DNA of 64,000 bases from a virus. The stretch lies in the IMG/VR virus record IMGVR_UViG_3300025151_000016, one strand, 5' to 3'. Below the pieces are notes generated by a model. That model saw nothing but the letters and a program-made list of their open reading frames with translations, had not been told where the DNA came from and searched no databases. The position numbers and the translations under genes were made by a program. Positions 5,018 through 41,552 of the stretch are shown here, in pieces; within the stretch, counting starts at the first letter, position 1; each line of letters starts with the position of its first letter.

Positions 5018-5101
5018 GTATATTCTCCTAGAAAACAGTATAAAAAAAATACAACACGCGAAATGCATGCTATATGTTGTTAGTCATTTTTTGTTGATAG
5101 T

Positions 5102-17997: not shown

Positions 17998-18183
17998 TTA
18001 TTTCTTGTCCATATTGTATGGCCAAGTGCCTGTTGGCATCCATGTTTTACTATTAGACCATGCGTGTTCTAACATGGAAAAACGTGACCAACTGCCGCCT
18101 TGTTTATTTAAAAATTTTATCCAGGCAATAAAGTTTCTAATTCTATTCATCTTCTTCATCTTTAGATTTATATGCCCATTCAT
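17998..18183 (-). CDS. Hypothetical protein
   Basis: Short ORF overlapping upstream gene; start uncertain. Confidence 0.5.
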   Translation of the reverse strand: MNGHINLKMKKMNRIRNFIAWIKFLNKQGGSWSRFSMLEHAWSNSKTWMPTGTWPYNMDKK

Positions 18184-18784
18184 CAGTATGTCCTACTGAC
18201 CATTTTGGCTCATCTTCTACACAGTAATTCTGAGTACAAACTTTAAAATCTGGTGTTTTTAATTTATCTGGTGTCAAAGAACTATCTCGCCATATGATTC
18301 TATTGTTTGGCTGTGCTGCAAATTGACCATTATCTAAACGTAAAACATTGAATGATTTGTGCTCAGGATCGTGCTCACTAAAATTAGTGTCAAGGACAGA
18401 TATATCGCGATGACAATTGTCTATTGTAAATTCATATTCTCCACCGTGCATTTTTTTATCTTTACCGAAAAACTCAGCTCTACATAAAATTGGTTTTTCT
18501 ATGACAGTAAGATCATAATCAAAACAATCCCAAAGCTGGAGAGTGTCAAGCGGCAGAAGTTCGCCGTGATCAGTCTTCCAAACAAAAGCTGAGATAGGAA
18601 GTTTGTCAAACAATGCGCCGTATTCTGTCAATAGTGTTTCAAAATATAATGCTTTGTATTTTGTAGACTTAACACTAATCCATATACCGGGTGTAAATTC
18701 GCCATGCCCATGTTCGAGATCATAGAGATACTCTTTTCGAACATAGACATGGACTGGGGGGAGCGGATGTATTAAAAATGCCAT
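18143..18784 (-). CDS. Conserved hypothetical protein
   Basis: VYVRKEYLYD...LQLWDCF...EHK...NGQFAAQPNNR. Confidence 0.75.
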   Translation of the reverse strand: MAFLIHPLPPVHVYVRKEYLYDLEHGHGEFTPGIWISVKSTKYKALYFETLLTEYGALFDKLPISAFVWKTDHGELLPLDTLQLWDCFDYDLTVIEKPILCRAEFFGKDKKMHGGEYEFTIDNCHRDISVLDTNFSEHDPEHKSFNVLRLDNGQFAAQPNNRIIWRDSSLTPDKLKTPDFKVCTQNYCVEDEPKWSVGHTDEWAYKSKDEEDE

Positions 18785-18788
18785 GATA

Positions 18789-19043
18789 TTATATATTATC
18801 CTTTTTCTTTTCAACTTCAGGTATTCTTAAAACTTTATGTGCAAACCATTTAAGAATTCTTTTAACACCATTGACAATCCATTCATTAAAGAAATGTCTA
18901 AGGATTCTAACAATAATAAGAATAGGTGAGTAAAGAACATCAAAGACGACTAGAAGAAGATCAACAATCAAGTCGATCATGCTGTCTACATTCCACAGCT
19001 CTTTTAGTCTCTTTTTAAATTTGGTTCTTGTTTTCTTAAACAT
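18789..19043 (-). CDS. Small membrane protein
   Basis: Central hydrophobic segment. Confidence 0.6.
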   Translation of the reverse strand: MFKKTRTKFKKRLKELWNVDSMIDLIVDLLLVVFDVLYSPILIIVRILRHFFNEWIVNGVKRILKWFAHKVLRIPEVEKKKDNI

Positions 19044-24653: not shown

Positions 24654-24833
24654 ATGTGGGTATTGCTATGGGTACAGTTAATGGCAACACAAAATGTAAA
24701 TCACTTTCATATTGGTAATTATTCAAAAGAAGTAGACTGCCAGTCGGCTATGAGTGCCGCTGCTGTTTTAGTTACTAGTAAAAATGAAAGCGTTGCTTGC
24801 TTGTACGTAGATATTAATGACATTAGAAATTAG
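24654..24833 (+). CDS. 59-aa exported/membrane hypothetical protein (not in ORF track)
   Basis: MWVLLWVQL...YSKEVDC...SVAC; starts right after upstream stop. Confidence 0.7.
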   Translation: MWVLLWVQLMATQNVNHFHIGNYSKEVDCQSAMSAAAVLVTSKNESVACLYVDINDIRN

Positions 24834-26017
24834 ATAAAAGCTTCCAAAGTATTAGGAGCCTTTTCAATATTGTATGATCGAGTCTTGTTATCTTGCAAGA
24901 CATACTCTGCTTCGATCATTTGCAAGTCACCACCTAAAAATCTTTTTACATTTTCTGCCATGTCCATTGCTGTCGTAACAGGCACGTTCTGACATATCAT
25001 ATTTAAGTTCTTTAGTCCTCCTTGTAATATAAAGTCTTTTGGCATCTTCATTATATCCAATGCTTCGCGAGTATTGATATAACGATCTTCATCGGGGTGG
25101 CATAAGGTATGAGGGAAGTGACCAACGAAAGCACCAATACGATCTTTTCCTATCTCAGTCATCTTTCTCATTATATTTCCACCAGCCGATAACTTATCAA
25201 ACATATAGTTACACTTCTCAGAAAGCTTCTGGTGACCCCTTTCTGCCATCCAAACGCCCACATCCTTATAAGATACACCTTTATCTTCAATATAGTGTAA
25301 AGGATTAGTTGTCTTTTCAATTAGTTGAAAGAACTCAGGATGAGTAATTCCACCATGCATTTCTTCTAGTACGTATTGATAGTAAGGATTGTCCGAAGGT
25401 TTCTGTTTGCTATTCACCTGTTCAAACATTGGATCTGGTTCGTTTGTAGCAGATGAACGAATCTGATCTTCGATCTTAGTGTATGGTCGATTGTAATACG
25501 ATAAGATTGGTACAGAGTTTCCTTTCCAAAAGAAATAGAATGATCTATCTCTAACCTGGCTTAATCCGTGGAGGATTGATTTGGTTTTGTAGATGGAGAA
25601 GACGTAACCGTTTCTTCTTCCGATTTCTCTAAGTTTTGCCACAACTGGTTCTCCCATTCGACTAGCGAGCCGTGGAGCATTTTCACCCCAGAACACAGTT
25701 GGTTGGATGGATTCGAGCACATACTCGGCAGACTTGACCATCCAATCATTAGTATTACTATCACCGCTGCTAGTAGGACTAAGTGAAGAAAGCCCCGCAC
25801 AAGGGCAGACAGTATTGACCACATCCACTCTGCTAGGAGCAGTGTCCCCTTTATCAAGCAGTAGATAAGGAATATTATTATTATAATAGTTAAGAAGTTG
25901 GCTATCATTTGCTGTAAAATCCGTGTAAGAGAGGATGTATTCGGGTCGTTTCCCGAATACGTTTTCCATTGCTATTGTTTCACCTCCTATGAGAGGAACA
26001 ATACTTGCATAATTCAT
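24830..26017 (-). CDS. DNA cytosine-C5 methyltransferase-like protein
   Basis: PC (CPCAGLS), EN (GENAP), QxRxR (QVRDRSF) and C-terminal NVP motifs; motif I divergent (VPLIGG). Confidence 0.75.
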   Translation of the reverse strand: MNYASIVPLIGGETIAMENVFGKRPEYILSYTDFTANDSQLLNYYNNNIPYLLLDKGDTAPSRVDVVNTVCPCAGLSSLSPTSSGDSNTNDWMVKSAEYVLESIQPTVFWGENAPRLASRMGEPVVAKLREIGRRNGYVFSIYKTKSILHGLSQVRDRSFYFFWKGNSVPILSYYNRPYTKIEDQIRSSATNEPDPMFEQVNSKQKPSDNPYYQYVLEEMHGGITHPEFFQLIEKTTNPLHYIEDKGVSYKDVGVWMAERGHQKLSEKCNYMFDKLSAGGNIMRKMTEIGKDRIGAFVGHFPHTLCHPDEDRYINTREALDIMKMPKDFILQGGLKNLNMICQNVPVTTAMDMAENVKRFLGGDLQMIEAEYVLQDNKTRSYNIEKAPNTLEAFI

Positions 26018-26970
26018 TAATTCACCTTGTAATAATCTTTGTACCAAGTGACAAATTTTTCCACGCCATCAGCAATAGGTGTTGTTGGATTATAACCTAA
26101 TTTCTGGAGTTTAGTCGTATCTGACCATGTGGCTGGAGTATCTGCCGGATGTGCTTCACAAGGATTACGTATTGCTGTGCGACCAAGGTTCTTTTCAATA
26201 TGATCTACAAAATCAAGTAACTCTACTTGTTGTCCATATCCGATATTATATATCTCATGATAACTATCACTATCTGTGACAACTTTATCTATCACTAGGC
26301 TTATGCCATGAACAATATCTTCAACGTAAGTAAAGTCACGTTTCATATCACCAAAGTTATATAAGTCAATTGGTTTACCTTTTATAATATTATCAGTAAA
26401 CTTAAACAGCGCCATGTCAGGTCTTCCATAAGGACCATACACAGTAAAGAATCGTAAGCCAGCGGTACGTTTAATTTTTGAATGACCAAACTGACATTCG
26501 TTTACTTTTTTAGACCAGCCATAAGGGTTGTTTTGATTTTCAGGTTTATCAACTTCATTCCAAGGTAACGGCTGTCCATGCATTACACATGATGATGAAG
26601 CATATACTACAGGAATATTGAGTCCTTCGACTTCCAATGCTTCGACGATACGCTGTGTACCAGTAATGTTTGTGTCAATATAGTGCTGTGGTTCGTCCAT
26701 AGCGTGACGTGGATTTGCATATGCTGCAAGGTGTAAGACTACGTCCACGTCATCAAATAATTTCTTATCAGGATGAATGTCTTGAATATCGAGTTGTAAC
26801 GTATCAACTCCATAGTCTTCTCTTAATATTCTTGCTCTTTCTCTTTTTAGTTCTACATCGTAGTAGTCATTAAAATTATCTACTCCTACTACTTGGTGTC
26901 CTCTTGCTGCATAGTATATTGCAGAGTGGAAGCCTATCATGCCGGCTTGGCCTGTGATAAATATTTTCAT
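26017..26970 (-). CDS. NAD-dependent epimerase, UDP-glucuronate 4-epimerase-like
   Basis: TG.AG.IG, DNFNDYYD..LK..R, YASSS, YxxxK, LRFFTVYGPYGRPDMA, RDFTY. Confidence 0.88.
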   Translation of the reverse strand: MKIFITGQAGMIGFHSAIYYAARGHQVVGVDNFNDYYDVELKRERARILREDYGVDTLQLDIQDIHPDKKLFDDVDVVLHLAAYANPRHAMDEPQHYIDTNITGTQRIVEALEVEGLNIPVVYASSSCVMHGQPLPWNEVDKPENQNNPYGWSKKVNECQFGHSKIKRTAGLRFFTVYGPYGRPDMALFKFTDNIIKGKPIDLYNFGDMKRDFTYVEDIVHGISLVIDKVVTDSDSYHEIYNIGYGQQVELLDFVDHIEKNLGRTAIRNPCEAHPADTPATWSDTTKLQKLGYNPTTPIADGVEKFVTWYKDYYKVN

Positions 26971-28214
26971 ACGAAAAATTCCTCGAGTCCTTGTGGTTGG
27001 TTGCTAGTAGTGTTCAAAGCGAGATCGATAATTTCTTTCACAACCATTTCTCCATCGGAGTGTTGCTTCCAAAATTCAAACGCCATCTCTCTCCAATCAT
27101 CTCTCATCGCAGGATCATTTTTAAGTTTGACCATTTGGTCGCGGCACTCATTAAAGTTAGTATAGTCAACGCCTAGAGTGCCAGAGTTTTGACATTGACT
27201 AATTGGTTTACCTTGTACAGGATGAATTACATTATCACAAAAGTGTTTGTGAAATAACGGTACTGTACCTGAAGCTATACATTCGGCGTGGCAATTTTCT
27301 ATATTGTTACCATAGTGTTCTGCTTTTAAAAAGTATAAGTCAGAACCAAATGCTGACCGTGACATACGATCCATAGCTTCTGAGTTTATATATTGTGGAT
27401 AAAGGTATGCACCTTTGCCTTCAACTTCTTTGCCATACAAATCAGGTGTAAACTTAACTTCATTAAATTGTTTCTCAGGTCTGAAATGATTTTCTACAAT
27501 TCTACGATCTGTAGGATTGTCTGATTTATTATCACGATATAAGACTAAAGGATATTGTATAGAAGCTTCTAGTCCTTCCAACACAGTGATAAATCCTTGT
27601 TCCATCAAAGCATCTTGATGGAAGTCAATCATAACACTTGGTCCTTTCCACATAGCAGTACGGCCAATCCATCTTACCATGTTGTGTTGTTGTTCTTCAA
27701 TAGGACGCCAGTACTTTGCACGGTGTCCATCATAATCAAAGCCAAGTCCCATCTTTGTAAGTGGAGTTTCAATCTTGTTTTTTCTCATAAACTTACAGAA
27801 ATCATTTTCCATACTATGAGTCATAATAACATCTACATTTTCGCATACTTCTTTTAAGTTAGCATTACGTGCAATGGATGCTGCTTTATGATCTACGTTA
27901 ATAAACGCTTTACGAATATTAATATGTTTAAGAAACGGAATAAAATTATCCTGGCATTCTTGAGGATGACTCTTTGAAGGTACTGAATATATGATACACA
28001 AATCAAAATATTCATTAATCCAATTGGCATTTATCTCCCATTCATTTGCCATTGAGAATTCTTTTTGCTTTATATCTAATCCTTTGGCTCTACCCCATTT
28101 TTTATCAGTAGCAGATAAGATATGAGCACCCGTTACTTTTTGCATTTGTATTGCACACTGTGTAACACCGCAACCTTCAGTGCCGCGACCAAGGACAATT
28201 GCAATTCTAGTCAT
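26967..28214 (-). CDS. agt: DNA glycosyltransferase, T4 alpha-glucosyltransferase homolog
   Basis: N-terminal I.I.LGRG.EGCGVT resembles T4 AGT; WIGR...WKG; E....E.IA.GTVP.F. Confidence 0.8.
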   Translation of the reverse strand: MTRIAIVLGRGTEGCGVTQCAIQMQKVTGAHILSATDKKWGRAKGLDIKQKEFSMANEWEINANWINEYFDLCIIYSVPSKSHPQECQDNFIPFLKHINIRKAFINVDHKAASIARNANLKEVCENVDVIMTHSMENDFCKFMRKNKIETPLTKMGLGFDYDGHRAKYWRPIEEQQHNMVRWIGRTAMWKGPSVMIDFHQDALMEQGFITVLEGLEASIQYPLVLYRDNKSDNPTDRRIVENHFRPEKQFNEVKFTPDLYGKEVEGKGAYLYPQYINSEAMDRMSRSAFGSDLYFLKAEHYGNNIENCHAECIASGTVPLFHKHFCDNVIHPVQGKPISQCQNSGTLGVDYTNFNECRDQMVKLKNDPAMRDDWREMAFEFWKQHSDGEMVVKEIIDLALNTTSNQPQGLEEFFV

Positions 28215-28590
28215 TAATAAATTCCTTACATTCAATTAAAACATTATGTACGTATTTATGATCGTTTAACTTACGATTTCTAGGGGAAGGATGTGGTAAG
28301 ACAAAGTGATCTTCGAAACCAAGACGTTTCAAATAGCTCGATACCATTGAACCCCATACAACTATCTTATCATAGTTTTTAAGACTTGTACATAATAAAG
28401 TGTGATCAAAAGTCTTAAATTTAAAATCCCATTCAGGATCAAATGATAAGTTAGTGAAGGAGACATGTGTGAGGTCCAGTTGATCTAACCAGCTATGAAA
28501 TCTTTTGTACGCAGATCCCTTTGCCTTACTCACTGCTACCTTTGAAGGATTCATTCCAACAAAGATAATTCTAGACCGAAACGAATTCAT
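28207..28590 (-). CDS. Uracil-DNA glycosylase superfamily-like protein
   Basis: IFVGMNPS, FTNL, LPHPSPRN motifs. Confidence 0.7.
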   Translation of the reverse strand: MNSFRSRIIFVGMNPSKVAVSKAKGSAYKRFHSWLDQLDLTHVSFTNLSFDPEWDFKFKTFDHTLLCTSLKNYDKIVVWGSMVSSYLKRLGFEDHFVLPHPSPRNRKLNDHKYVHNVLIECKEFIND

Positions 28591-29038
28591 ATTCAATTCC
28601 AGCTTCTTCAAACATAGCTGAAGTTAAAGCAAATGATTCAACCCAATGCTCAGGTATTTCCTGATTAGGCATAACCACACGTTTAACACCAACTTGAATT
28701 ACGCCTTTAGCGCAATCAGAACAAACAGGTAAACCCCACACGTATAATGTAGATCCATCAAGTGATACACCATTATATGTAGCGTTGTATATTACATTCT
28801 GTTCTGCATGAACAACATACCTGTACTTAATTTTCTTGACAGCGTATCTATTCAAATCATCTTTTATACCACGAGGAAAGCCATTGTATCCTTGAGCAAG
28901 TACCTGCCCTTTCTTTCCTATAGCAACAGCACCAATCTTAGATGACGGGTCCTTTGACCAAGTGCTTACTTCCTTTGCTAATCCTAGGTATCTTATATCC
29001 CATTTATTTGACAAGGTGAAAGTGCCTTTCATATACAT
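28571..29038 (-). CDS. cd: dCMP deaminase
   Basis: WSKDPS..IGAV, GYNGFPRG, HAEQN, PVCSDC. Confidence 0.92.
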   Translation of the reverse strand: MYMKGTFTLSNKWDIRYLGLAKEVSTWSKDPSSKIGAVAIGKKGQVLAQGYNGFPRGIKDDLNRYAVKKIKYRYVVHAEQNVIYNATYNGVSLDGSTLYVWGLPVCSDCAKGVIQVGVKRVVMPNQEIPEHWVESFALTSAMFEEAGIEYEFVSV

Positions 29039-29690
29039 GCAAGTTTTGTACTTGCCACATAATCATACCGGGTTGAAGTCCTTCATAGCTGTGGGCATGT
29101 CGATCAATTCTGTTTATGTTATCACATAGCAATGAGAGTACATGCATTTGCCAGGCATAATCATTCTTATAACCAAACACTACATCATTCGAACGCATTT
29201 GAACTACAGCGTTAAGTACATCATCACGAATGTAATAGCTCACAGCGTTTGTACATATGAAATCATTCTTTTCGTTTTCATTGTATTCTAGCCAGACAGA
29301 AGGACGATTGTATACCATTGTAGCTCTACGTCCATCAGGATTTTCAATTAACTCATCAAGGACATGACCATACTGTTGGTGGTACTTATCAGACCAGATA
29401 AGATGACCATAGTTTGAATTAATTTCACCGTGTTTATTTGCTGCGTATTGCCAAGCTTGTGGAACACTTTCACCAATATCATTTACGTTTGTGGATTGAC
29501 TTTCATACCAATCTAATTCTTCTTGAATATAATCATAGTTTGGCGAACCAAAGATAGCAGGCTCATCAGCAACAAACGATGCACCAATCAGTTCAATAGT
29601 TTTTTGACCGGTTCTATCGATTGTAAATGCTTCATCATTGAGTTCACCAATAAAGAACTGGCGAATATCATGTACACTATGTAGTTTCAT
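29004..29690 (-). CDS. gp42: dCMP hydroxymethylase (T4 gp42-like, thymidylate synthase fold)
   Basis: INSNYG, DFICTN, MRSNDVVFGYKNDYAW (Asp at the dCMP-specificity position), NLHVYERHF. Confidence 0.9.
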   Translation of the reverse strand: MKLHSVHDIRQFFIGELNDEAFTIDRTGQKTIELIGASFVADEPAIFGSPNYDYIQEELDWYESQSTNVNDIGESVPQAWQYAANKHGEINSNYGHLIWSDKYHQQYGHVLDELIENPDGRRATMVYNRPSVWLEYNENEKNDFICTNAVSYYIRDDVLNAVVQMRSNDVVFGYKNDYAWQMHVLSLLCDNINRIDRHAHSYEGLQPGMIMWQVQNLHVYERHFHLVK

Positions 29691-30030
29691 TTTTTACTCG
29701 CTTTGGACGATTTAGAAAGTCACGATCAGGATCTTGGCCATCAATACCATTATTCATATATGCAGCAAAGAATGAAGCATAGTTAATAATATCAATGCAT
29801 GAATCTTCGAGGCTTTCAAAGTTTGGTTCGTAATTTGGATCAGATTCCATTGCTTCGAGTACTGATTGCATGCGTAACACTTTTGCATACATTGTATCAA
29901 GAAGAGTTGAACAACCTCTAGGGTAATACATTGCTTGTTGTATTCTAGAGCTTGGGTTCTGGTAATCATTACCTTTTCTGTTTTGTACTTCTGCAGCTTT
30001 CTGCAAAACTTTAAGTGATTCTTTACTCAT
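29677..30030 (-). CDS. Nucleotide-modification-associated small protein (DUF1599/Nmad1-like)
   Basis: K..DY...K..R...ESLEDS..D.INY. Confidence 0.65.
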   Translation of the reverse strand: MSKESLKVLQKAAEVQNRKGNDYQNPSSRIQQAMYYPRGCSTLLDTMYAKVLRMQSVLEAMESDPNYEPNFESLEDSCIDIINYASFFAAYMNNGIDGQDPDRDFLNRPKRVKNETT

Positions 30031-30600
30031 TTATCTTGTACCTCTACCACGTATTTCACGGTTAACCTTAGGGCGAAAATGCTTGATGGAAGCACCTTCA
30101 ATATACTCAGCCATGCCATCAATATTGAATTGACTAGTATTAATATATTTTATAACAATTTCTAAAGATTGTAAACCATTTTCTGTGAGAAACTCTCTAA
30201 ATTTTCTACCAGATGATTCACTAATTACACTATCATCTAGAAAACTTCTTAGATGATTACCTTGGCGGCTATTGATGCTTGCAGATGGAGCGTCTGTTTT
30301 ACCAATATAAAGTGTATAAGGTCCTAATGTAACAAACCAACCGTATACACCTTTTGCTTTGCTTGCTGCAAAAGGAGCCGGTCCTCTTTGACCAGGAATT
30401 CTTTCAAGCTTCTTAGGAACTTCTAAAAATTCATAATCAAAATCTACATATGGAAGAGATTTGCCGGCAAAATCTGGTAGATCTCTTGGAGGCATATTCT
30501 TTTTATGTAAACGTATTTTTCCATAAACTTCAGCCTCATCCCATAATTTTTTAATATCAATCGAACTAAGCATTGATGCTAAATTATTTAATATAGACAT
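30031..30600 (-). CDS. GIY-YIG-like endonuclease
   Basis: GVYGW...LYIGKT...SRQ..H...E...I.HF.P..N. Confidence 0.65.
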   Translation of the reverse strand: MSILNNLASMLSSIDIKKLWDEAEVYGKIRLHKKNMPPRDLPDFAGKSLPYVDFDYEFLEVPKKLERIPGQRGPAPFAASKAKGVYGWFVTLGPYTLYIGKTDAPSASINSRQGNHLRSFLDDSVISESSGRKFREFLTENGLQSLEIVIKYINTSQFNIDGMAEYIEGASIKHFRPKVNREIRGRGTR

Positions 30601-31163: not shown

Positions 31164-31637
31164 TTAGAATTTTGTTAAGAATTGTGCTATTCTTCCTACA
31201 AATGGTAACAGCATAAGTGCCATCATAAGATTCATACCAGTATGTGCCATAGCTATTCGTAAGGTATCACCTTTTGGCCAGCCATCAGATACAAAGATAC
31301 CGGCTAACCATATGGTTCCAGTAGTTCCAATGTTAGCTCCTAACACAGCAGCAACTGCGGCTGGTAGCGGTAAGGCGCCTGAAGCAACTAACGCAATGAT
31401 TGCAGTAGTTGATAATGAAGACGATTGCCACAAGAGTGTCATTACTATTCCACCAATAAACATGTATATCGGATTACCTAAAAAGAATTGTAAGTGGTCC
31501 ATGTTACCCATTGACTTCATACCACCTGAGAATGTTTTAAGTCCAATGTAAAATATTACTAAGCCAACTAAAGCAGTTATTACGGGATTTCCTAGATCCA
31601 TTTTCTTTACCTTCTTCCAAAGTTTTTTATTCGACAT
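31164..31637 (-). CDS. Na/Pi cotransporter family protein (single repeat)
   Basis: QSSS motif, GANIGTT, 4-5 TM segments. Confidence 0.85.
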   Translation of the reverse strand: MSNKKLWKKVKKMDLGNPVITALVGLVIFYIGLKTFSGGMKSMGNMDHLQFFLGNPIYMFIGGIVMTLLWQSSSLSTTAIIALVASGALPLPAAVAAVLGANIGTTGTIWLAGIFVSDGWPKGDTLRIAMAHTGMNLMMALMLLPFVGRIAQFLTKF

Positions 31638-31638
31638 A

Positions 31639-32052
31639 TTACAAACCTTTATCTAATTCCCCATGATTATCTTCATGGTTCGGTCCTACCCATCCATCAG
31701 GCTTCAATAGATCTGGTAGACCAAATGGATTAGGACGTCCTGGTTTTACGCCAACCTGTTTATTCATATTGGCTTTATATATCTCGTCCCAAGCTTTACT
31801 TGCATCAACATTGAATACATCAAGTGTACCGATAGCAAAAACACATAGATCAATCAAGCCATCTACAATTTCTTCTGAATTACCAGAGTTGGCAGCTTGC
31901 ATAGTTTCATGTAATTCTTCTTGACACATAAGCAAACGGAACATAAGGTACTTGTTCATAAGTACTTTATCATCTTTATTCTTTTCAAACCATTCATTGA
32001 CACCATACTTCTTATGCATGTCTGCCATGTCTTGTACCCAATTAGTACTCAT
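31639..32052 (-). CDS. MazG-like all-alpha NTP pyrophosphohydrolase (possible dCTPase/dUTPase)
   Basis: EE..E...E.VDGL.D, ANM.K...KP.GW..P. Confidence 0.8.
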   Translation of the reverse strand: MSTNWVQDMADMHKKYGVNEWFEKNKDDKVLMNKYLMFRLLMCQEELHETMQAANSGNSEEIVDGLIDLCVFAIGTLDVFNVDASKAWDEIYKANMNKQVGVKPGRPNPFGLPDLLKPDGWVGPNHEDNHGELDKGL

Positions 32053-32076: not shown

Positions 32077-32105
32077 ATTATATCACCTTTTGCATAGTAA
32101 GTAAA
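32077..32105 (-). promoter_or_regulatory. Sigma70-type promoter
   Basis: TTTACT-N17-TATAAT overlapping the GAPDH 3' end. Confidence 0.7.
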
Positions 32106-33064
32106 CCTTTCATGTAGTTTGCAACATCAGCCATTCTACAACTAAATGCCCATTCGTTATCATACCAGGCTAATACTCTAACTAAATTATTATTTGATAC
32201 TCGTGTTTGTTCTGGTGCAAAAATACAACTTTCTTTTGTTGTATTAAAATCACTGCTTACGAGTGGCAATGGCTCGTAGCCAATAATGCCAGACATATCA
32301 TTACGTGTGCTTTCATATACATGTTTATTAACAATGCTTTCAGTAACTTGTTCTTTAACTTGTACTGTTAAATCAATGCAACTTACATTTGGCGTAGGTA
32401 CTCTTATTGCTCCGCCCATTATTTTACCATTGACAGGAGGATAAACTTCTCCTAGTGCCTTTGTTGCTCCTGTGCTTGTTGGAATCATATTGACAGCACC
32501 TGCTCTTGCTCTATAAGGATCTTTGTGCCTTTTATCTATAGTGCTTTGGTCTCCGGTGTAACTATGTATTGTTGTCATTTGTCCTGCTACAATACCACAG
32601 GTTTCATCTAATATTTTAACAAGTGGCGCTAAACAGTTTGTTGTACAACTTGCATTGCTAACAACGTGTTCGTGCTTCTGTATGTCATTATGGTTCACAC
32701 CATATACTACTGTGCGTTTACATTCTTTAGCAGGCGCACTTATGACAACTTTCTTTGCTCCATTTATTGTATGATGCATGCATTCAACACCGTTATTGTA
32801 AGCACCCGTACATTCTAATACAACATCAACATTATGCCACTTTAGTTTTTTTATATCTCTTTCTTCTGTCCATACCAAAGGTTCATGTATAGGACCTGTG
32901 TAACGCCCATGCACACTATCATACTTTAACAAGTGAAGGTTTACTTCTTCTCCACCTGAAGCATTGATTTGAACTACATTCATATCATTACGTTGGCTCA
33001 TTATGTGTCTTGCAACACAACGTCCTATACGACCGAAGCCATTGATACCTATATTAAGTTTCAT
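32078..33064 (-). CDS. gap: Glyceraldehyde-3-phosphate dehydrogenase, type I
   Basis: GINGFGRIGR, LKYDSVHG, ASCTTNCLAP, TTIHSYTGDQ, RVPTPNVS, WYDNEW. Confidence 0.92.
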   Translation of the reverse strand: MKLNIGINGFGRIGRCVARHIMSQRNDMNVVQINASGGEEVNLHLLKYDSVHGRYTGPIHEPLVWTEERDIKKLKWHNVDVVLECTGAYNNGVECMHHTINGAKKVVISAPAKECKRTVVYGVNHNDIQKHEHVVSNASCTTNCLAPLVKILDETCGIVAGQMTTIHSYTGDQSTIDKRHKDPYRARAGAVNMIPTSTGATKALGEVYPPVNGKIMGGAIRVPTPNVSCIDLTVQVKEQVTESIVNKHVYESTRNDMSGIIGYEPLPLVSSDFNTTKESCIFAPEQTRVSNNNLVRVLAWYDNEWAFSCRMADVANYMKGLLTMQKVI

Positions 33065-33734
33065 TTATTTTTGGATATATTGCGCTAATTGCTTTAGCTA
33101 TTACTGTGGCCAGTTCCATATGTTCTTTTTGTGTCCCGTTTGCAGAACGTAACTCGATATAATGAATCCAGCTACGAATGGTGCCATTAACATAAAGCTT
33201 AGAAACTGTGTTCCCTTCTGGCAAGATTGCTCTTGCCTGTTCTTTTGCGATTCCTCGTTCGAGTGCTTCATTGTAGATCCTCTTTACATGTTCGATTACA
33301 AACTTTTGTTGAGCATCCCACCAAGCTTCAAGTGCTGGATCGGTTGCTTCAATACTATTCTGACGATTCTTTTCGTCCTGTAGTCGTGCTTCTCTTAAAA
33401 CAAAATCATTATTAAGATCATTGATGCTAGCATACCGCTGAGAAAACTCTTGAAATGAAAACGATCTGTGCCTGAGGAACTGCCTTGCGATGTCTCTTGT
33501 CGTTGTGACTTCGACACAGCAGCTTGCCATTTCGAATGGTGACCAGTGCTTGTGCTTGATGAGGTAGTCAAGTAACTTTCTCGTTGTTTTGGTGTTAGCC
33601 TGGTTCGATGGATTGGAGACACGGGCGCAATACGCGATGAGGTCTTGCGTGTTGTCGAGGCCCATGATACCGAGTTCACCGGAGTGTATGTGCCGAACAG
33701 GTTGTGAGTATGAGATGAGACGTGCATGCGTCAA
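33054..33734 (-). CDS. thyX: Flavin-dependent thymidylate synthase
   Basis: HWSPFE, RHRSFSFQEFSQRY, KEQARAILP. Confidence 0.95.
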   Translation of the reverse strand: MTHARLISYSQPVRHIHSGELGIMGLDNTQDLIAYCARVSNPSNQANTKTTRKLLDYLIKHKHWSPFEMASCCVEVTTTRDIARQFLRHRSFSFQEFSQRYASINDLNNDFVLREARLQDEKNRQNSIEATDPALEAWWDAQQKFVIEHVKRIYNEALERGIAKEQARAILPEGNTVSKLYVNGTIRSWIHYIELRSANGTQKEHMELATVIAKAISAIYPKINET

Positions 33735-36439: not shown

Positions 36440-37485
36440 TATTCTGCCTCAACAATAGTATCTGGATCTACCAGTGCTTTATGACCAATTGAATACTGCT
36501 TCTTAATAAACTCGCTGAACGCTGTTGTTTCAAAGATAGGATCCCAAAACTCTTTTTCTAGAGTTTGATCATATCGTACTTTACCAAACTCTTGGCCATC
36601 AGGACCATTAGCTTGTTGATACCAACCAGCCGAAGGTTTAGTAACATATCCACCAGCAAGAGCTACGTCAAGAAGACCGCTGTAACTTTGAACTCCACCT
36701 TCCCAAGATACGGAGATAGGAATCTTTGATTTTTCTTTTACATAACGAGACTTATCAACATTAATTACAAAGTCATAGCCTGTAATCTCTGTACCCTTTT
36801 TATTTTGCCTACGTCCAATGATCCAAATGTTATCGGCTGAGTAGTAGATACCTGTTCCACCACCTACGATATCTTTTGGAAATAATCCTATTTCTTTATA
36901 AGTATGATTAACTGCTATTAAAGGAATATCCTTCATAGTCAAGTAAGGTGTTACCATACGGAACAAACCTTTGAGTGCTTTTGCTCTTGACATATCAGCC
37001 ACAGACTTTTCATTCAATGCATCTTCAAGTTCTTTCTTCGATGCAAGGTTACCAATACTATCAATAACAATAACAACTCGATCATTGCGATCAAGTTCTT
37101 CGAGTTGACCAACAAGATCAAACTTTAGTTCTTCTACATTTGCAATAGGTGTATGCAATACACGCTGTACATCAATATCAAATTGTTCAAAGTAAGATTG
37201 TGGTGAACCAAACTCAGAATCATAAAATAGCATGACTGCATCAGGATACTTTTTCATGTATGCGCTAGCCATGAGTAAACCAAAAGAAGTCTTAAAGTGT
37301 TTTGACGGACCAGCCAATACTGTAAGGCCTGGAGTTAACCCACCGTCAACTGAACCAGATAAAGCAACGTTTACCATTGGTACATCTGTTGGAACCATAT
37401 CTTTTTCAGTAAAGAACTTTGATTCGCCAAGAACTTCGGTAGACTTAATCTTCGAGTTCTTTTTTAATTTATCCATAATTGACAT
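36439..37485 (-). CDS. uvsX: RecA-like recombinase
   Basis: AGPSKHFKT, YDSEFG, DSIGNLASKKE, GGGTGIYYSAD. Confidence 0.96.
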   Translation of the reverse strand: MSIMDKLKKNSKIKSTEVLGESKFFTEKDMVPTDVPMVNVALSGSVDGGLTPGLTVLAGPSKHFKTSFGLLMASAYMKKYPDAVMLFYDSEFGSPQSYFEQFDIDVQRVLHTPIANVEELKFDLVGQLEELDRNDRVVIVIDSIGNLASKKELEDALNEKSVADMSRAKALKGLFRMVTPYLTMKDIPLIAVNHTYKEIGLFPKDIVGGGTGIYYSADNIWIIGRRQNKKGTEITGYDFVINVDKSRYVKEKSKIPISVSWEGGVQSYSGLLDVALAGGYVTKPSAGWYQQANGPDGQEFGKVRYDQTLEKEFWDPIFETTAFSEFIKKQYSIGHKALVDPDTIVEAE

Positions 37486-38272
37486 TTTGTTCTCTTTCTC
37501 TATCGTCTAATTCGTAACATTTGCGATACTCATTGTTTATTCTAATACATTTTTCAATAATTGTAAACCCCTTATCGAAATTTACTAGAGCTGCAGTGTC
37601 CTTTGGAAAGCATGCGCCACCATATCCTTGCTTACCATCTGGCCCAGGAACTTTAGTATGCGAATGTCCAATACGTGAATCAGTACCAATAGCTTTTACG
37701 ACCTTATTAAATGTTTGTCCTTGACGAGCAATTGAATCATATAACTGATTGAAGAATGTAACCTTTAATGCTAAGAAAGAATTTATGCCATACTTTACAA
37801 AGCTGGCTTCTTTCGGAGTCATCTTATATACAGGACATGGTGTACATAGGCTATACTCATCATAAATCTTTTCTAAGAAATTAGTGTTTACTTCGTTTCC
37901 ACCAAAGACATGAAACTCTGGACGAATAAAATCTTCGTTAGCAGCTTTTTCTGTAAGAAACTCTGGATTGTAAATGAGATTATATTTTTCAAACTTATCA
38001 AAGAAAGTAGGAACGACGGTTGACTTTATTACGATAGGAATATTAGGACCAAGCGCAAGAACAACTTCAGTTAAAATAGAATCGTCAATAGATCCATCTT
38101 CACCAAACGGCGTAGGCACACAAACAAATGCAACACTGTACTTTGTAATATCAAGTTCATGTACACTATTTCCATACTTTGGATCTACAATATACTTTTG
38201 TAACTTAGGATGATTAAATCCATAGTCTACAGCTTTACCAACAAACCCATGGCCTACAATTATCATCTTCAT
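37469..38272 (-). CDS. ugd: UDP-glucose 6-dehydrogenase (short form)
   Basis: G.GFVG, VCVPTP, IKSTV, NPEFL, KY..N.FLA.KV.FFN, GYGGACFPKD. Confidence 0.88.
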   Translation of the reverse strand: MKMIIVGHGFVGKAVDYGFNHPKLQKYIVDPKYGNSVHELDITKYSVAFVCVPTPFGEDGSIDDSILTEVVLALGPNIPIVIKSTVVPTFFDKFEKYNLIYNPEFLTEKAANEDFIRPEFHVFGGNEVNTNFLEKIYDEYSLCTPCPVYKMTPKEASFVKYGINSFLALKVTFFNQLYDSIARQGQTFNKVVKAIGTDSRIGHSHTKVPGPDGKQGYGGACFPKDTAALVNFDKGFTIIEKCIRINNEYRKCYELDDREREQNVNYG

Positions 38273-38273
38273 A

Positions 38274-38702
38274 TTACGCCCCTTCATTTTGTGCCACTCG
38301 TCTACGTAGATCACTACTACTAAATCTATGTTCACGCTTATTAAAATATAAACGAATACCTTTACGACGACATACTTCTTTACCAGTAAAATCTTTGTTC
38401 TTGTATTCTTCACCCATGATTTTTACATTTATGTCAAACATTTCTAATATGTCAATCACGTCATTTTCACCTTGATAACAAACTATCTCATCAACGTATT
38501 TTACACCAGCCAATTGAACATAACGTTCTACCAATGTTTGTACTGGTGCATTCTTATCATCTCTGTCAAGAGAAGGATCTACCTGTAGACCACATATAAG
38601 ATAATCACAAATAGTTTTAGCTTCACGTAACATTGCTACATGACCAGCATGTAATAAATCAAATGTAGATAATGTTAAGCCAATTGTTTTAGTAGATTCC
38701 AT
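38274..38702 (-). CDS. TagD-like (glycerol-3-phosphate) cytidylyltransferase
   Basis: STFDLLHAGH, YVDEI, R.H.FSSS. Confidence 0.85.
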   Translation of the reverse strand: MESTKTIGLTLSTFDLLHAGHVAMLREAKTICDYLICGLQVDPSLDRDDKNAPVQTLVERYVQLAGVKYVDEIVCYQGENDVIDILEMFDINVKIMGEEYKNKDFTGKEVCRRKGIRLYFNKREHRFSSSDLRRRVAQNEGA

Positions 38703-39379
38703 GTTTCTTCCCATGTTTTAACTTGATGTACGCCTTGTCCAGCTGAGGCAAGAGCCCAAGATAGTTTATAGTCATTGCCACCCGGTTCCATTTTGTCACC
38801 AAAGAATTCAATACGATCATTTTCTAAATCAAAGTCACGTGTTATTTGTGACTTGTCACAGCCAGGTAATGTAATATCGATTCCAGTATCACCTGCAACT
38901 TCAAATAATATATGTGGGTATCTTTCTTGCATTGTAGTTGCAATCTGTACGCGTTCACTTTGATGATAATCCCATTCTTTGTACATAGCTCTTTCTTCAA
39001 GCGTATTGTTTCTTCCTAGGATACTAAAGTTTACAAGACCAGGACGTTGATCAAAATGCATACCAGTTTTGCAGGGAAACTTTGATTTGAGTATATAATC
39101 TCTTAGATCAAACTCTACGTCTAAAGGTAGTGCAAAAATTCCAGAATGCAAGTTCTTATCCTGTCGCCAAACATCGTTTCCTGAACAATTATAAACCTTT
39201 TCACATAGATTGTAAATAGTAGATCCTATTTGTTCTAATGTTTTTTTCCTATCTGAACCAGTAACTAGATAGCACGTATTGTTCGTAGCAAAATCCTCGA
39301 ACCATTTTGCAAATACAGAATCTATTTTCATTCTGCTTTCTGTTAAAGTACCATCCACATCAAATATAAACTTACGCAT
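38675..39379 (-). CDS. HAD IIB phosphomannomutase-like enzyme
   Basis: FDVDGTLT, VTGSD, R.GL.NFS..GR, FFGDK..PGGNDY. Confidence 0.85.
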   Translation of the reverse strand: MRKFIFDVDGTLTESRMKIDSVFAKWFEDFATNNTCYLVTGSDRKKTLEQIGSTIYNLCEKVYNCSGNDVWRQDKNLHSGIFALPLDVEFDLRDYILKSKFPCKTGMHFDQRPGLVNFSILGRNNTLEERAMYKEWDYHQSERVQIATTMQERYPHILFEVAGDTGIDITLPGCDKSQITRDFDLENDRIEFFGDKMEPGGNDYKLSWALASAGQGVHQVKTWEETWNLLKQLA

Positions 39380-39713
39380 AACCAACTGTCTCTCTCTGTA
39401 TATCGTTATGATTAAACTCTGCCCAATACAATTCAAAGGCAACACCATCTTTTAAACATTCAAATTGATGATAAACACCGGGCTTGACTTTTGTGTATTC
39501 ACCTGGTTCTAGTATTGTTTCATCAACCAAGTCATAATCATTTTGCCATACACGAATAAGCATACGACCAGACTCAACATAGAATCCATTCCATTTAAAC
39601 TCGTGTAGATGTTTGGAGCAAACACCACCTTTATTCATTTCAATTCTATGAAACTCAAGAACACCATTCATTTCAATCTGTTCTGTAAGTCCCCATACTT
39701 TACCTGCTTTCAT
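39372..39713 (-). CDS. Cupin, sugar-isomerase-like
   Basis: K.WG, CS.H.H..K...FYV.SG, V.PG.YH.F. Confidence 0.75.
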   Translation of the reverse strand: MKAGKVWGLTEQIEMNGVLEFHRIEMNKGGVCSKHLHEFKWNGFYVESGRMLIRVWQNDYDLVDETILEPGEYTKVKPGVYHQFECLKDGVAFELYWAEFNHNDIQRETVGYA

Positions 39714-40371
39714 GCCATTTCCTTGCATCTTCTGGAGTGTTAATTTCTATTCCATTCCATTCTACACTAGTTACGCCGATTTGTACACCATTTTTTAACC
39801 ATCGTAGTTGTTCTAGTTGTTCGATCTCTTCTTCTTTTTCTATTGGAAGTCTTGGATACAACTCTAACATATTTCTTTTATAACCATATACACCTAGGTG
39901 CCAATCTCCGTATCCTGTTATGCCTCTCCCAAACCAAAGTGCTTGATCTCCAGCTCTAATCATTTTTACTGAGTGAGGATCATTCTGCTTATCTTTTGGC
40001 ATAGGTGTCCATACGGTTGTCACCTCATAATTTTTTAAATGCCAATGAACATTGTTTATTATTTCTGGTGTAACGTCTGGCATGTCACCTTGTACATTTA
40101 TATATTGATCATAGTCTAGTTTTTCTAAGGCAGCTCCAGCACACCGCTCGGTTCCATTACTGAATTCTCTGTTGTCATATATCACGTGCTTGAGTGGAAC
40201 TGCATGTGCAACAGATCTATGATCAGTGAGTACATACGTATCAAATCCAGACTTAACGCAAGCATCGTAAACTCTACGAATCATTGTCGTTCCACCAAGA
40301 TTACATATAGGCTTACCTGGAAATCTACTTGATTCGTATCGAGCAGGAATTAATATCGCTGTGGTCGTCAA
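39700..40371 (-). CDS. kdsB: CMP-Kdo synthetase
   Basis: IPARY.SSRFPGKP, NGTERC, NVQGD.P, H.G.YGY, EQLEQLRWL, INTPED. Confidence 0.9.
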   Translation of the reverse strand: MTTTAILIPARYESSRFPGKPICNLGGTTMIRRVYDACVKSGFDTYVLTDHRSVAHAVPLKHVIYDNREFSNGTERCAGAALEKLDYDQYINVQGDMPDVTPEIINNVHWHLKNYEVTTVWTPMPKDKQNDPHSVKMIRAGDQALWFGRGITGYGDWHLGVYGYKRNMLELYPRLPIEKEEEIEQLEQLRWLKNGVQIGVTSVEWNGIEINTPEDARKWHESR

Positions 40372-41552
40372 ATTAAACTCTCTAAAATTTCTAATACCTG
40401 TTTACTATTATCTTCTACACCAATGTCAATAGCACTCTTTACGCATGTTCTTGTAAAATCTAAGCTGAATCTGTTGCCGTTGCTATCCATCCCTGTGTTT
40501 ATTAAATATACGTTACATACTTCATTCGTTATTTTATCCATAAGCAAATCACTATAAACTTTAACTGATCTTGGCATAAACGGTGATCCGTAACAAGGAG
40601 AGAATATTTTCTTTATCTCATCGCTGCCAGCTTCTGTTCCAGGCATTTGACTTGTGTAACCAGTTTCAAAGAAGCGTCTAACCGTATTACCACTTATTTT
40701 ACTTACAGGTGGAAACCGACCTGTTGCATCCATAGTTAAGAAGAATATATTATCAGGATGACCGAACTGATCCTGATCAGTCCAGGCATTGCTAACACAA
40801 TCTATAGAATAACTTAATCTTGCGTTCGCAGCTCCAGGATTTTCTACTACAAGAGTATCTCGTTTCTTTGCTTCTTCAACAGCATTAAAAATAGTTGGGT
40901 GAGTCTCTTGAGTTAATCCTTCTGATTTAGCATAACAACCGGTTTCTATAATACGAATGCCTTTATCGTTCCATGACACTTCATCATCAGATATAAGACG
41001 AAACTCTGGATCACTACTTAACGTTGTTTTACCTGTGCCGCTTAATCCAAACATAAGGTTTGTTTTATCTTCATAAGTAAAAGCTGCACAATGCATAGGA
41101 AGAATGTTTTGATCTGGTAGTTCAAATCCTAAGATACTAAACACACCTTTTTTAATCTCACCAAGAAACGTAGTACCACCAATAAGCATTGTCTTTTCAT
41201 CTAAGTGCACAGCAATAGTAGGTTGGCATTTTATTTCTGTATTATGAATGATAGTCCAGTCTGCGCAATGTTCGTACGGATTATCTACAACAGTAAACAT
41301 ATTACGTACAAACTGTGCATGTCTATCATCATTTGTTTCTACACGAAAACAAAAACCTGATGTATAGAAAACAAGATTATGCTCTGTATCATACTCATTT
41401 ATATCTTCAAAGAACTCCCAGTAATTGAGATCTTTACCGATCTTGTTATACTTAGGTCGTGTTAGATCTAAATGCTTAGTTCTATTTCCAAAGTGTACTT
41501 TATTTTCAGGAGAACGACCGGTTGGTTCAGTTGTTATTTCTATATTGGGCAT
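40368..41552 (-). CDS. pckA: PEP carboxykinase (ATP), compact form
   Basis: TGRSP, GEIKKG, PMHC, FGLSGTGKTTLS, DDE, GCYAK, FSPCYG.PF. Confidence 0.88.
   Translation of the reverse strand: MPNIEITTEPTGRSPENKVHFGNRTKHLDLTRPKYNKIGKDLNYWEFFEDINEYDTEHNLVFYTSGFCFRVETNDDRHAQFVRNMFTVVDNPYEHCADWTIIHNTEIKCQPTIAVHLDEKTMLIGGTTFLGEIKKGVFSILGFELPDQNILPMHCAAFTYEDKTNLMFGLSGTGKTTLSSDPEFRLISDDEVSWNDKGIRIIETGCYAKSEGLTQETHPTIFNAVEEAKKRDTLVVENPGAANARLSYSIDCVSNAWTDQDQFGHPDNIFFLTMDATGRFPPVSKISGNTVRRFFETGYTSQMPGTEAGSDEIKKIFSPCYGSPFMPRSVKVYSDLLMDKITNEVCNVYLINTGMDSNGNRFSLDFTRTCVKSAIDIGVEDNSKQVLEILESLI

Follow-up and report, generated by a model that had tools for sequence, protein, structure and literature searches.

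Genes for hydroxymethylcytosine and its glycosylation in a marine T4-like phage suggest an acidic sugar on viral DNA

T-even phages make glucosyl-hydroxymethylcytosine (glucosyl-hmC) with a gene set that in T4 comprises gp42, cd, gp56 and an alpha-glucosyltransferase, and RB69 and its relatives carry arabinosyl-hmC (Thomas et al. 2018, PMC6024577). The interval between PolB and UvsX is plastic in such phages; RB69 has a proposed arabinose module there, and near uvsX T4 carries gene 42 and beta-gt (PMC6024577). A uronic acid is known from the DNA of Bacillus phage SP-15, as phosphoglucuronate on dihydroxypentyl-uracil (PMC5977210). Pyle, Lund, O'Toole and Saleh obtained hexuronic-acid-, Kdo- and heptose-cytosine in E. 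coli from viral gene clusters (bioRxiv 10.1101/2023.12.21.572611; Cell Rep 2024), the hexuronic-acid-cytosine with the epimerase-dependent, subclass II glycosyltransferase (GT) of contig 57 (bioRxiv 10.1101/2023.12.21.572611). With hexuronic-acid-cytosine and the glucuronate of SP-15 DNA as precedents, a uronate on cytosine is not a categorically new idea.

The locus described here lies in a 64,000-nt window, one strand of IMG/VR record IMGVR_UViG_3300025151_000016 from an uncultured marine T4-like phage; the window is the whole stretch of DNA that was analysed. Positions 24830-30030 of the minus strand hold a single operon of seven co-oriented genes with overlaps of 1 to 41 nt, and the contiguous seven-gene block of the original prediction is thereby recovered in full (Table 1). 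As predicted from these genes, the phage set is sufficient to swap cytosine for hmC and to attach a sugar to it, and neighbouring genes suggest that this sugar is acidic, either galacturonic or glucuronic acid. The genes are best read as specifying a uronate on hmC, a reading in which we place about even confidence.

Table 1. Predicted genes of the modification locus, from first to last in the operon, followed by other relevant genes of the window
Feature	Position	Strand	Support
Nmad1/DUF1599-like small helical protein (first operon gene; weak match)	29677-30030	-	Pfam DUF1599 17.6 bits (cut-off 25); PHROG 18404 E 2e-11; PHROG 1485 E 7e-10
gp42-type dCMP hydroxymethylase, predicted to make 5-hm-dCMP	29004-29690	-	PDB 1b49 E 3.9e-73
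dCMP deaminase	28571-29038	-	PF00383 62.8 bits; PHROG 174 E 2e-40
Half-size UDG-superfamily protein, SMUG/MUG-type motifs	28207-28590	-	Pfam UDG 22.2 bits (cut-off 24.3)
T4 alpha-glucosyltransferase (AGT)-family DNA glycosyltransferase (GT-B)	26967-28214	-	PF11440 115.6 bits (gathering cut-off 25)
UDP-glucuronate 4-epimerase family SDR (UDP-GlcA <-> UDP-GalA, predicted)	26017-26970	-	PDB 5u4q 245 bits
Divergent C5-cytosine methyltransferase (C5-MTase)-like protein (last operon gene)	24830-26017	-	PF00145 45.4 bits (cut-off 22)
MazG/PRA-PH-type NTP pyrophosphohydrolase, candidate dCTPase (gp56 analogue)	31639-32052	-	PF01503 36.8 bits; PHROG 671 E 8e-22
ThyX (separate gene, covers dTMP synthesis)	33054-33734
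Mini UDP-glucose-dehydrogenase (UGDH)-like enzyme, 267 aa	37469-38272	-	PF00984 and PF03721 only
TagD/RfaE-domain-II-like nucleotidyltransferase, predicted NDP-/CDP-activated sugar or polyol	38274-38714	-	PF01467 45 bits
Eukaryotic-type phosphomannomutase (HAD) homolog	38675-39379	-	PF03332 78.9 bits
Small cupin, candidate sugar-phosphate isomerase	39372-39728	-	PF07883 33.4 bits
KdsB-like cytidylyltransferase, ATP-dependent PEP carboxykinase (PEPCK) and KdsA-like Kdo-8-P synthase	39700-42321	-	PF02348 94.8, PF01293 299.3 and PF00793 155.4 bits

The gp42 homolog matches the T4 enzyme over its full length (residues 6-227 against 8-225 of 1b49) at ∼60 per cent identity, and the Cys of its 'FICTN' and the Asp of its 'KNDYAW' align with the identical catalytic residues C148 and D179 of T4 ('FMCTN' and 'RNDYAW'), the cytosine-specifying position having been located through the D179N mutant chain 6l18. 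Asp179 of T4 gp42 takes the place of the thymidylate synthase Asn. The cytosine-specifying Asp of the original prediction is thus present, as is the dCMP deaminase; the 5-hydroxy-C offered as an alternative acceptor is without basis, since the product of gp42 is a hydroxymethyl group. The Nmad1-like gene exists and is kept upstream of gp42 in relatives, but its Pfam match falls below the cut-off. The MazG-type gene, conserved beside the primase in relatives, may encode the dCTPase.

These genes suggest the following scheme. Before replication, the putative MazG-type pyrophosphatase and gp42 would turn the dC nucleotide pool into 5-hydroxymethyl-dCMP, the dCMP deaminase and ThyX would maintain the dTMP supply, and the phage polymerase would put hmC into DNA, to a predicted extent that may or may not be complete. 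After replication, the AGT homolog would move a sugar onto the hydroxymethyl group, the donor most likely being a phage-made hexuronate: UDP-glucuronate would arise from UDP-glucose through the mini-UGDH, and the epimerase would turn it into UDP-galacturonate. DNA so modified is predicted to carry galacturonosyl-hmC (or glucuronosyl-hmC).

That the transferase is a T4 AGT homolog, as originally proposed, is evident from both its PF11440 score and a full-length match to the T4 a-gt structures 1xv5/1y8z (E 3e-44, ∼30 per cent identity). The UDP contacts G15, R204 and E311 of T4 a-gt are invariant across 63 AGT sequences. Among the glucose contacts H116 and H140 are retained, while H114 is replaced by Val and S117 by Lys in all 63 clade members, leaving two of the three residues of the glucose-contacting triad (His114, His116 and His140, as listed in PMC6024577). 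Its sequence makes the protein a member of this fold family, with a glucose specificity that the pocket residues do not establish. Sister lineages with a gp42-deaminase-AGT-MTaseL-UvsX arrangement and without epimerase or UGDH have the T4-like pocket motifs 'HDH(S/N)' and 'SIEYTH', and the epimerase-linked clade has 'NVDHK' and 'NIENCH' without exception. However, 'DHK' is widespread across the AGT superfamily and the change is therefore not diagnostic; given the single evolutionary origin of the linked clade, the contrast also amounts to one event.

The closest characterised matches of the epimerase are UDP-glucuronate 4-epimerases (UGAepi), led by 5u4q and followed by the B. cereus enzyme 6zl6 (141 bits) and MoeE5 (99 bits), and not GalE (∼66 bits), UXS (65 bits) or the heptose epimerase HldD (65 bits). 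The NAD motif, S125-S127, Y150/K154, T176 and R183 are invariant across 58 sequences, such that the Ser/Thr-Tyr-Lys triad, the carboxylate-binding Ser/Thr cluster and the equivalent of Arg185 are all retained (T176/R183 correspond to T178/R185 of B. cereus UGAepi). In the latter enzyme Arg185 anchors the GalA carboxylate and its loss yields a decarboxylase (PMC12338863). JGI annotates relatives of the epimerase as UDP-glucuronate 4-epimerase, and the assignment in the original prediction holds.

The dehydrogenase was predicted at the right coordinates and the gene is correct, but it is a truncated form without the UDP-binding domain, and not a full UGDH. From its true start (MKMIIVGHGFVG) the protein consists of the NAD domain and the catalytic central domain and ends ∼45 residues past the catalytic Cys; PF03720, the C-terminal UDP-binding domain, gave no Pfam match in it, and alignments to UGDHs in the PDB stop at about residue 320 of 390-450. 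The same domain is missing from all 36 homologs (45-60 per cent identity), in which the catalytic core is intact and GxGxxG (G7/G9/G12), NPEFL, K170, N175, C221 and D225 are invariant. The AF2 model (pLDDT 93) retrieves UGDHs in Foldseek with TMq 0.76-0.81 and TMt ∼0.5, about half of each UGDH being covered. Sequence and model are thus consistent with a UGDH-like catalytic core and not a canonical UGDH. To our knowledge the C-terminal domain binds UDP in all characterised UGDHs, and without it the substrate is not secure; UDP-glucose may not be the substrate.

Co-occurrence across phage genomes, put forward as a check on the original prediction, was examined in 80 related IMG/VR loci. In 74 of 74 loci the AGT is followed by the epimerase, with a gap of at most 15 nt in 69 of them and a 4-nt overlap in the window, and in 60 of 67 relatives the next gene after the epimerase is the mini-UGDH. 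Most relatives, unlike the window, have the UGDH-like gene inside the block, which strengthens the pathway logic; this conserved order also implies that the window layout is a rearranged form of one module. The AGT-epimerase-mini-UGDH trio has come through no fewer than three rearrangements, represented by the window type, by L036 and by L075/76, and the AGT and epimerase stay joined where the UGDH has moved off, as in the window. In the relatives the block lies between PolB and UvsX.

The main rival is ordinary alpha-glucosyl-hmC of the T4 kind, for which the host would provide the UDP-glucose, with the epimerase, mini-UGDH, Kdo and NDP-sugar genes being AMGs for host LPS, capsule or a virion glycan that became neighbours only via an insertion hotspot. 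We regard this as a serious minority possibility, perhaps half as probable as the uronate. In its favour, H116, H140 and every UDP contact of T4 a-gt are retained. Phage C48C1, the nearest isolate, has epimerase-UGDH-UvsX without gp42 or AGT, and the pair can therefore serve another target. The inner core of LPS contains GalA, Kdo and heptose, a set matched by the Kdo and NDP-sugar genes of the window together with GalA. A pelagimyophage paper reads rfaE and UGDH as LPS genes (AMGs), which again favours a glycan outside the DNA. Against this rival stand the AGT-epimerase gap of 0-15 nt in those 69 loci and a pair that remains joined when the UGDH moves. No LPS-type transferase was found among the ORFs scanned, lineages lacking the epimerase-UGDH pair carry the distinct, T4-like pocket, and the DNA GTs of reconstituted viral clusters need partner epimerases (Pyle et al.). 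The proposal that the AGT homolog transfers glucuronate or galacturonate to hmC therefore stands in its gene identities and pathway logic, but the sugar is read from gene linkage and an LPS-type role is live.

The transferase might also use another phage-made donor, or place more than one sugar on hmC, which appears unlikely. Candidate donors are Kdo (KdsA, KdsB, PEPCK) and an NDP-heptose or NDP-mannose (cupin, phosphomannomutase, TagD/RfaE-II-like protein). Viral GT-B enzymes have made Kdo- and heptose-cytosine, the heptose case requiring a cytidylyltransferase and a HAD enzyme (bioRxiv 10.1101/2023.12.21.572611). The nucleotidyltransferase (NCBIfam rfaE_dom_II 76.7 and TagD 62.9 bits, both under their cut-offs; PDB matches ECT 72.7 and TagD 52.5 bits) adjoins gp42 in 34 of 38 loci, and in L092, from another AGT subclade, it lies directly upstream of the transferase beside a different SDR. 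The small cupin sits before it in relatives, and the phosphomannomutase homolog has a DxDxT motif at its refined start. KdsB, PEPCK and KdsA form a predicted CMP-Kdo supply route that may or may not be tied to DNA modification. Against such donors, the Kdo genes occur in only nine of 80 relatives, each with an AGT at least 83 per cent identical to that of the window, and the pocket motifs of the transferase are unchanged; the AGT homolog is the sole GT recognised in the window, where no beta-GT was found; and it keeps its UDP contacts, whereas Kdo donors are CMP-linked. In its fullest form, which we consider a little less probable again, three activated sugars would be phage-made (a UDP-hexuronate, an NDP-heptose or NDP-mannose, and CMP-Kdo, for which the phage would also provide the PEP) and more than one would be placed on hmC as an LPS-core-like acidic DNA glycan. 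If this were true, the minimal UGDH would be a new enzyme form working without a UDP-binding domain, for example by pairing physically with the epimerase or by using a nucleotide sugar other than a UDP-sugar.

Very improbably, the transferase adds glucose to hmC and the mini-UGDH, with an open active site, converts this glucose, once on the DNA, to glucuronosyl-hmC by oxidation at C6, as the missing UDP-binding domain and intact core of 36 of 36 homologs would allow. Against this, the accompanying epimerase is of the UDP-GlcA type and requires soluble UDP-uronate, and mini-UGDHs are also encoded by C48C1, the Campylobacter CP21 group and Microbacterium phages, which lack gp42 and AGT.

For a uronate on hmC, then, speak the gp42 residues, the full-length AGT, the UGAepi-type epimerase, the intact mini-UGDH core, their conserved linkage, the pocket contrast, the precedents and the position of the block in relatives, within the PolB-UvsX interval. 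Counted against it are the retained H116/H140, the missing UDP domain, the C48C1 pair and the LPS-core sugar set, as well as the cost to DNA packaging of an additional negative charge at every cytosine.

The C5-MTase-like call is borne out by the PF00145 score and by motifs I, IV (Pro-Cys), VI, VIII and X in canonical order, with PLIGG, CPCAGLS, GENAP, QVRDR and QNVP invariant in 46 sequences; its NCBIfam dcm score is far under the cut-off, and the Atlas places it in virus-only C5-MTase clusters. The gene also follows the AGT in sister lineages without uronate genes. If hmC fully replaces cytosine, phage DNA would offer this protein no substrate. The UDG-like protein has 'GMNPS' and 'HPSPRN' motifs, with G..P and PHPS..NR..N invariant (alignment A2) and the motif A Asn not conserved in distant members. 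Its AF2 model (pLDDT 83) matches almost exclusively UDG-superfamily chains, with vaccinia D4, SMUG1 (TMq 0.63) and TDG at the top. The assignment to the UDG superfamily is tentative: the Pfam score is just under the cut-off, the protein is about half the usual length and the Foldseek E-values are weak (4e-3 to 2e-2). It is possibly a U or 5hmU glycosylase or binder.

The locus shares with the T-even system gp42, the dCMP deaminase and a full-length alpha-GT with its UDP contacts, as well as, in the relatives of the window, the PolB-UvsX interval that houses the block. It differs from T4 in a transferase whose sugar pocket has changed (H114V, S117K) and which invariably comes with a UDP-GlcA 4-epimerase and mostly with a mini-UGDH, and in adding the C5-MTase-like protein and mini-UDG. 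RB69 is likewise a T4-like phage in which glucose on hmC is replaced, with donor genes proposed between PolB and UvsX, but the sugar, transferase family and donor pathway are all different. SP-15 has a uronic acid on its DNA, as predicted here, and a UGDH that is 29.5 per cent identical to its homolog, the mini-UGDH, whereas its base is a thymine derivative, its linkage a phosphodiester and its gene set different. With subclass II of Pyle et al. the window shares a DNA GT adjoining a sugar epimerase, for which hexuronosyl-methylcytosine is predicted, and with their clusters more broadly it shares nearby Kdo and heptose donor genes. Their 5hmC arises post-replicatively through a C5-MT and a TET-like oxygenase in a GpC context, whereas the window appears to use the gp42 nucleotide-pool route; a C5-MT-like gene is present and no TET-like 5mYOX oxygenase was found among the scanned window ORFs. 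Subclass II GTs are described as GT-A-like, whereas that of the window is a GT-B enzyme of the T4 alpha-GT family, and the window phage also brings a UGDH-like enzyme. The chemistry predicted here is a natural variation on one that laboratory work has already produced with different viral genes.

The original prediction, that the homolog of T4 alpha-glucosyltransferase (AGT) in the window puts glucuronate or galacturonate on hmC, is partly supported. The gene set, the residues of its enzymes and the linkage of transferase, epimerase and UDP-glucose dehydrogenase (UGDH) favor an acidic sugar, while against it stand the occurrence of an epimerase–UGDH pair without gp42 or transferase in C48C1, the nearest isolate phage, and the missing UDP-binding domain of the window's short UGDH-like enzyme (mini-UGDH). 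It is very probable that hmC is made and glycosylated in this phage, and there appears to be about an even chance that the sugar on it is a hexuronate.

The window comes from a marine T4-like phage that has not been cultured, and whose PolB is 54.5 per cent identical to that of C48C1 (Kyanoviridae) and ∼46 per cent identical to cyanophage PolBs; at the DNA level an isolate is matched only over a gp42 segment, at ∼65 per cent identity. The hypermodification operon comprises seven minus-strand ORFs, running from 30030 down to 24830, that overlap by 1 to 41 nt with no intergenic gap at any of seven junctions, and it ends against convergent plus-strand ORFs. An early promoter likely lies upstream, where there is also a small unrelated insertion. 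The ORF just upstream of the operon has a GIY...YIG-like motif by eye, matches no Pfam or PHROG family, lacks a counterpart in all 80 related loci and is probably a homing-endonuclease-type insertion. Metabolic genes are mixed among the replication genes of the window, and include a full GAPDH, a Na/Pi-cotransporter fragment, a PHROG 'ferredoxin' family protein and a B12-type ribonucleotide reductase.

Coordinates of features in the window and in related loci
Feature	Source	Coordinates	Strand
Hypermodification operon (Nmad1-like, gp42, dCMP deaminase, UDG-like, transferase, epimerase, C5-MTase-like)	window	24830-30030	-
C5-MTase-like gene (MTaseL)	window	24830-26017	-
Epimerase (SDR)	window	26017-26970	-
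Transferase (AGT homolog)	window	26967-28214	-
UDG-like gene (mini-UDG)	window	28207-28590	-
ORF just upstream of operon	window	30031-30600	
MazG/PRA-PH pyrophosphatase	window	31639-32052	
ThyX	window	33054-33734	
Metabolic genes (four coordinate sets)	window	32078-33064, 31164-31637, 18143-18814, 2792-5068	
Mini-UGDH	window	37469-38272	-
Second sugar operon (KdsA-like, ATP-dependent PEP carboxykinase, KdsB-like, cupin, PMM-type HAD, TagD/RfaE-II-like nucleotidyltransferase)	window	38274-42321	
Short UGDH form	C48C1 (L081)	25279-26238	
Radical-SAM, QueC-like and SAM-methyltransferase genes	L003	7436-9285	
Radical-SAM, QueC-like and SAM-methyltransferase genes	L015	6825-9594	
Transferase with different SDR and TagD-like nucleotidyltransferase	L092	2004-4558	

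All of the operon's gene assignments held when checked, the Nmad1-like gene on weak matches and the 127-aa UDG-like protein just under the Pfam threshold. The identity of gp42 is unambiguous from its match to the T4 structure (E 4e-73), with both the catalytic Cys and the cytosine-specifying Asp present. The dCMP deaminase and a separate ThyX cover dTMP synthesis, and the MazG/PRA-PH pyrophosphatase is a candidate dCTPase. The UDG-like protein has SMUG/MUG-type motifs and a predicted structure that is a cut-down UDG fold. Its PHPS..NR..N motif is invariant, but distant relatives have GHSPS in place of GMNPS at motif A. Activity may thus not be shared throughout the family, and the protein might bind a modified base instead of acting as a glycosylase. 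MTaseL, the last gene, encodes a very divergent yet complete C5-methyltransferase-like protein in which every catalytic motif is invariant.

An IMG/VR scan with the transferase returned 135 related stretches, a widespread marine clade without a cultured member, from which 80 loci at 64–99 per cent identity were kept and their gene order compared by tblastn synteny. In all 74 loci with room for it the epimerase comes after the transferase (gap ≤15 nt in 69), and it is itself followed by the mini-UGDH in 60 of 67; MTaseL follows in 51 of 52, and gp42 is found upstream in 43 of 45. Most often the order is (cupin)-(nucleotidyltransferase)-gp42-deaminase-(mini-UDG)-transferase-epimerase-mini-UGDH-MTaseL-UvsX, the whole set lying between PolB and UvsX. 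This interval is plastic, holding the proposed arabinose module of RB69 and also, near uvsX, gene 42 and beta-gt of T4 (PMC6024577). The window and five close relatives show a derived arrangement in which the operon has been relocated, with the epimerase still joined to the transferase and the mini-UGDH still beside UvsX, while in other rearrangements (L036, L075/76) the trio is also kept together. In some related loci (L003, L015) radical-SAM, QueC-like and SAM-methyltransferase genes lie between gp42 or deaminase and transferase, and may constitute a second base-modification pathway in the same block.

A second scan was made with P0125, a 45 per cent identical transferase from the representative search. 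Nine sister-lineage loci (L085, L097-L102, L105, L106) carry gp42, deaminase, transferase and MTaseL, usually followed by UvsX, and neither epimerase nor UGDH was found within their fetched flanks; L104 is also listed among the sister T4-like lineages without these genes nearby. Given that these lineages have MTaseL too, it is part of the hmC/transferase core and not of the uronate genes. Such a core partner is puzzling if cytosine is completely exchanged for hmC. In the L092 subclade ('QVDHN') two genes stand ahead of the transferase, one for a different SDR of 292 aa and one for a TagD-like nucleotidyltransferase overlapping the transferase, which suggests yet another self-made donor, and self-supplied donors thus look general in this transferase family.

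The transferase aligns over its whole length with T4 alpha-glucosyltransferase (E 3e-44, ∼30 per cent identity), and among phage records, cultured phages included, AGT homologs do not exceed 31 per cent identity. The sister lineages keep the T4 motifs 'HDH(S/N)' and 'SIEYTH', while in the epimerase-linked clade these read 'NVDHK' and 'NIENCH' without exception, with the UDP contacts unchanged. Here His114, one of three glucose-contacting histidines of T4 a-gt (PMC6024577), has become Val and the neighboring Ser has become Lys (S117K), a single evolutionary event relative to the sister lineages. This pocket change fits an altered donor, as supporting evidence and not as proof; H114V/S117K was downgraded as a diagnostic of uronate use, 'DHK' being common across 114 AGT-superfamily representatives. 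Plain glucose on hmC is unlikely, though still a reading of some weight, and other or mixed sugars take up what probability remains.

The remaining two enzymes would supply a uronate donor. The 317-aa SDR is assigned by its closest relatives to the UDP-glucuronate 4-epimerase family: among solved structures the three best matches are 5u4q, a structural-genomics entry from Klebsiella (245 bits), the characterized B. cereus UDP-GlcA 4-epimerase (141 bits) and MoeE5, against ∼65 bits each for GalE, UXS and heptose epimerase, and JGI annotates its relatives as UDP-glucuronate 4-epimerase. All 58 homologs share the NAD motif, the Ser-Tyr-Lys triad, a Ser cluster and residues matching T178 and R185 of the B. 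cereus enzyme; this Arg binds the carboxylate of galacturonate, and without it the enzyme becomes a decarboxylase (PMC12338863). A close homolog occurs in only 4 of 50,697 phage records. The best NCBIfam match, ADP-heptose 6-epimerase (109 bits against a cut-off of 274.6), was rejected because in the PDB HldD scores only 65 bits where UDP-GlcA 4-epimerases reach 245 and 141, and because the signature residues are those of the latter, and a UDP-xylose synthase for an RB69-like arabinose route was ruled out by the kept Arg185 equivalent. Since the epimerase is retained, galacturonate is favored over glucuronate.

The originally predicted boundaries of the mini-UGDH are correct: 47 homologs share the start MK(M/I)xIVGHG just after a stop codon, which rules out a 314-aa GTG-start ORF. 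The protein is unusual in that its 267 aa comprise a short version of the NAD domain and the central, catalytic domain; all solved UGDHs have in addition a UDP-binding domain at the C-terminus, which is missing here. Across 36 sequences (45–60 per cent identity) neither the NPEFL loop nor the catalytic Cys, Lys, Asn and Asp vary, and the confident AlphaFold model (pLDDT 93) superposes on UGDH domains one and two (TMq 0.76-0.81, TMt about 0.5). Cores of this kind, roughly 250–320 aa, recur in unrelated phage groups, namely C48C1, Campylobacter CP21-type and Microbacterium phages (in the last adjoining a glycosyltransferase), with a partial match in SP-15, and raise the enzymological question of function without a nucleotide-binding domain. 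Oxidation of the hmC hydroxymethyl group by this enzyme was set aside, as phages that lack gp42 carry the same enzyme.

LPS inner cores contain Kdo, heptose and GalA, and the sugar genes of the window might accordingly be LPS AMGs with a non-DNA role. The pelagimyophage literature reads such genes in this manner (PMC7029224). C48C1 carries epimerase, mini-UGDH and UvsX while homologs of gp42 and of the transferase are absent, which means that the pair can have a target other than hmC, and the window's mini-UGDH is the last gene of the second operon, a run of overlapping ORFs with the Kdo and nucleotidyltransferase genes. However, no LPS-type transferase was found among the window ORFs scanned, where the T4-type enzyme alone is recognizable as a glycosyltransferase; nor was a second glycosyltransferase found there or in the inserts inside relatives' blocks (radical SAM, QueC-like, SAM MTase, homing endonuclease). 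Cupin and nucleotidyltransferase lie directly upstream of gp42 in most relatives. Kdo genes are confined to 9 of 80 relatives, all in the subclade closest to the window, and are therefore an accessory layer.

If a hexuronate is indeed attached to hmC, much of the cytosine in an abundant ocean T4-like phage group would bear a sugar with negative charge. It would be the first such case in nature and on the scale of a genome, the chemistry having been seen until now only after reconstitution in E. coli. There would be consequences for the physics of DNA packaging, for how these phages withstand restriction, CRISPR and anti-phage DNA glycosylases, and for their recovery by sequencing.

The chemistry itself is not categorically novel, as cytosine carrying a uronate has been obtained experimentally before. 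Pyle, Lund, O'Toole and Saleh (bioRxiv 10.1101/2023.12.21.572611; Cell Rep 2024) reconstituted hexuronic-acid-modified cytosine in E. coli from viral clusters of a C5-MT, a TET-like oxygenase and a GT, with or without an epimerase; contig 57 required its epimerase, while the contig 91 GT alone gave an isomer. The same study describes Kdo-modified cytosine made by a GT-B enzyme and heptose-modified cytosine from a cluster encoding both a cytidylyltransferase and a HAD enzyme, and in its database mining GT-B enzymes lay mostly beside thymidylate-synthase-type genes (bioRxiv 10.1101/2023.12.21.572611). SP-15 DNA has long been known to bear glucuronate on a thymine derivative (PMC5977210). What sets the window locus apart is a nucleotide-pool route to hmC, a transferase of the T4 alpha-GT family and a predicted uronate supply of its own, in two steps and by way of a minimal UGDH.
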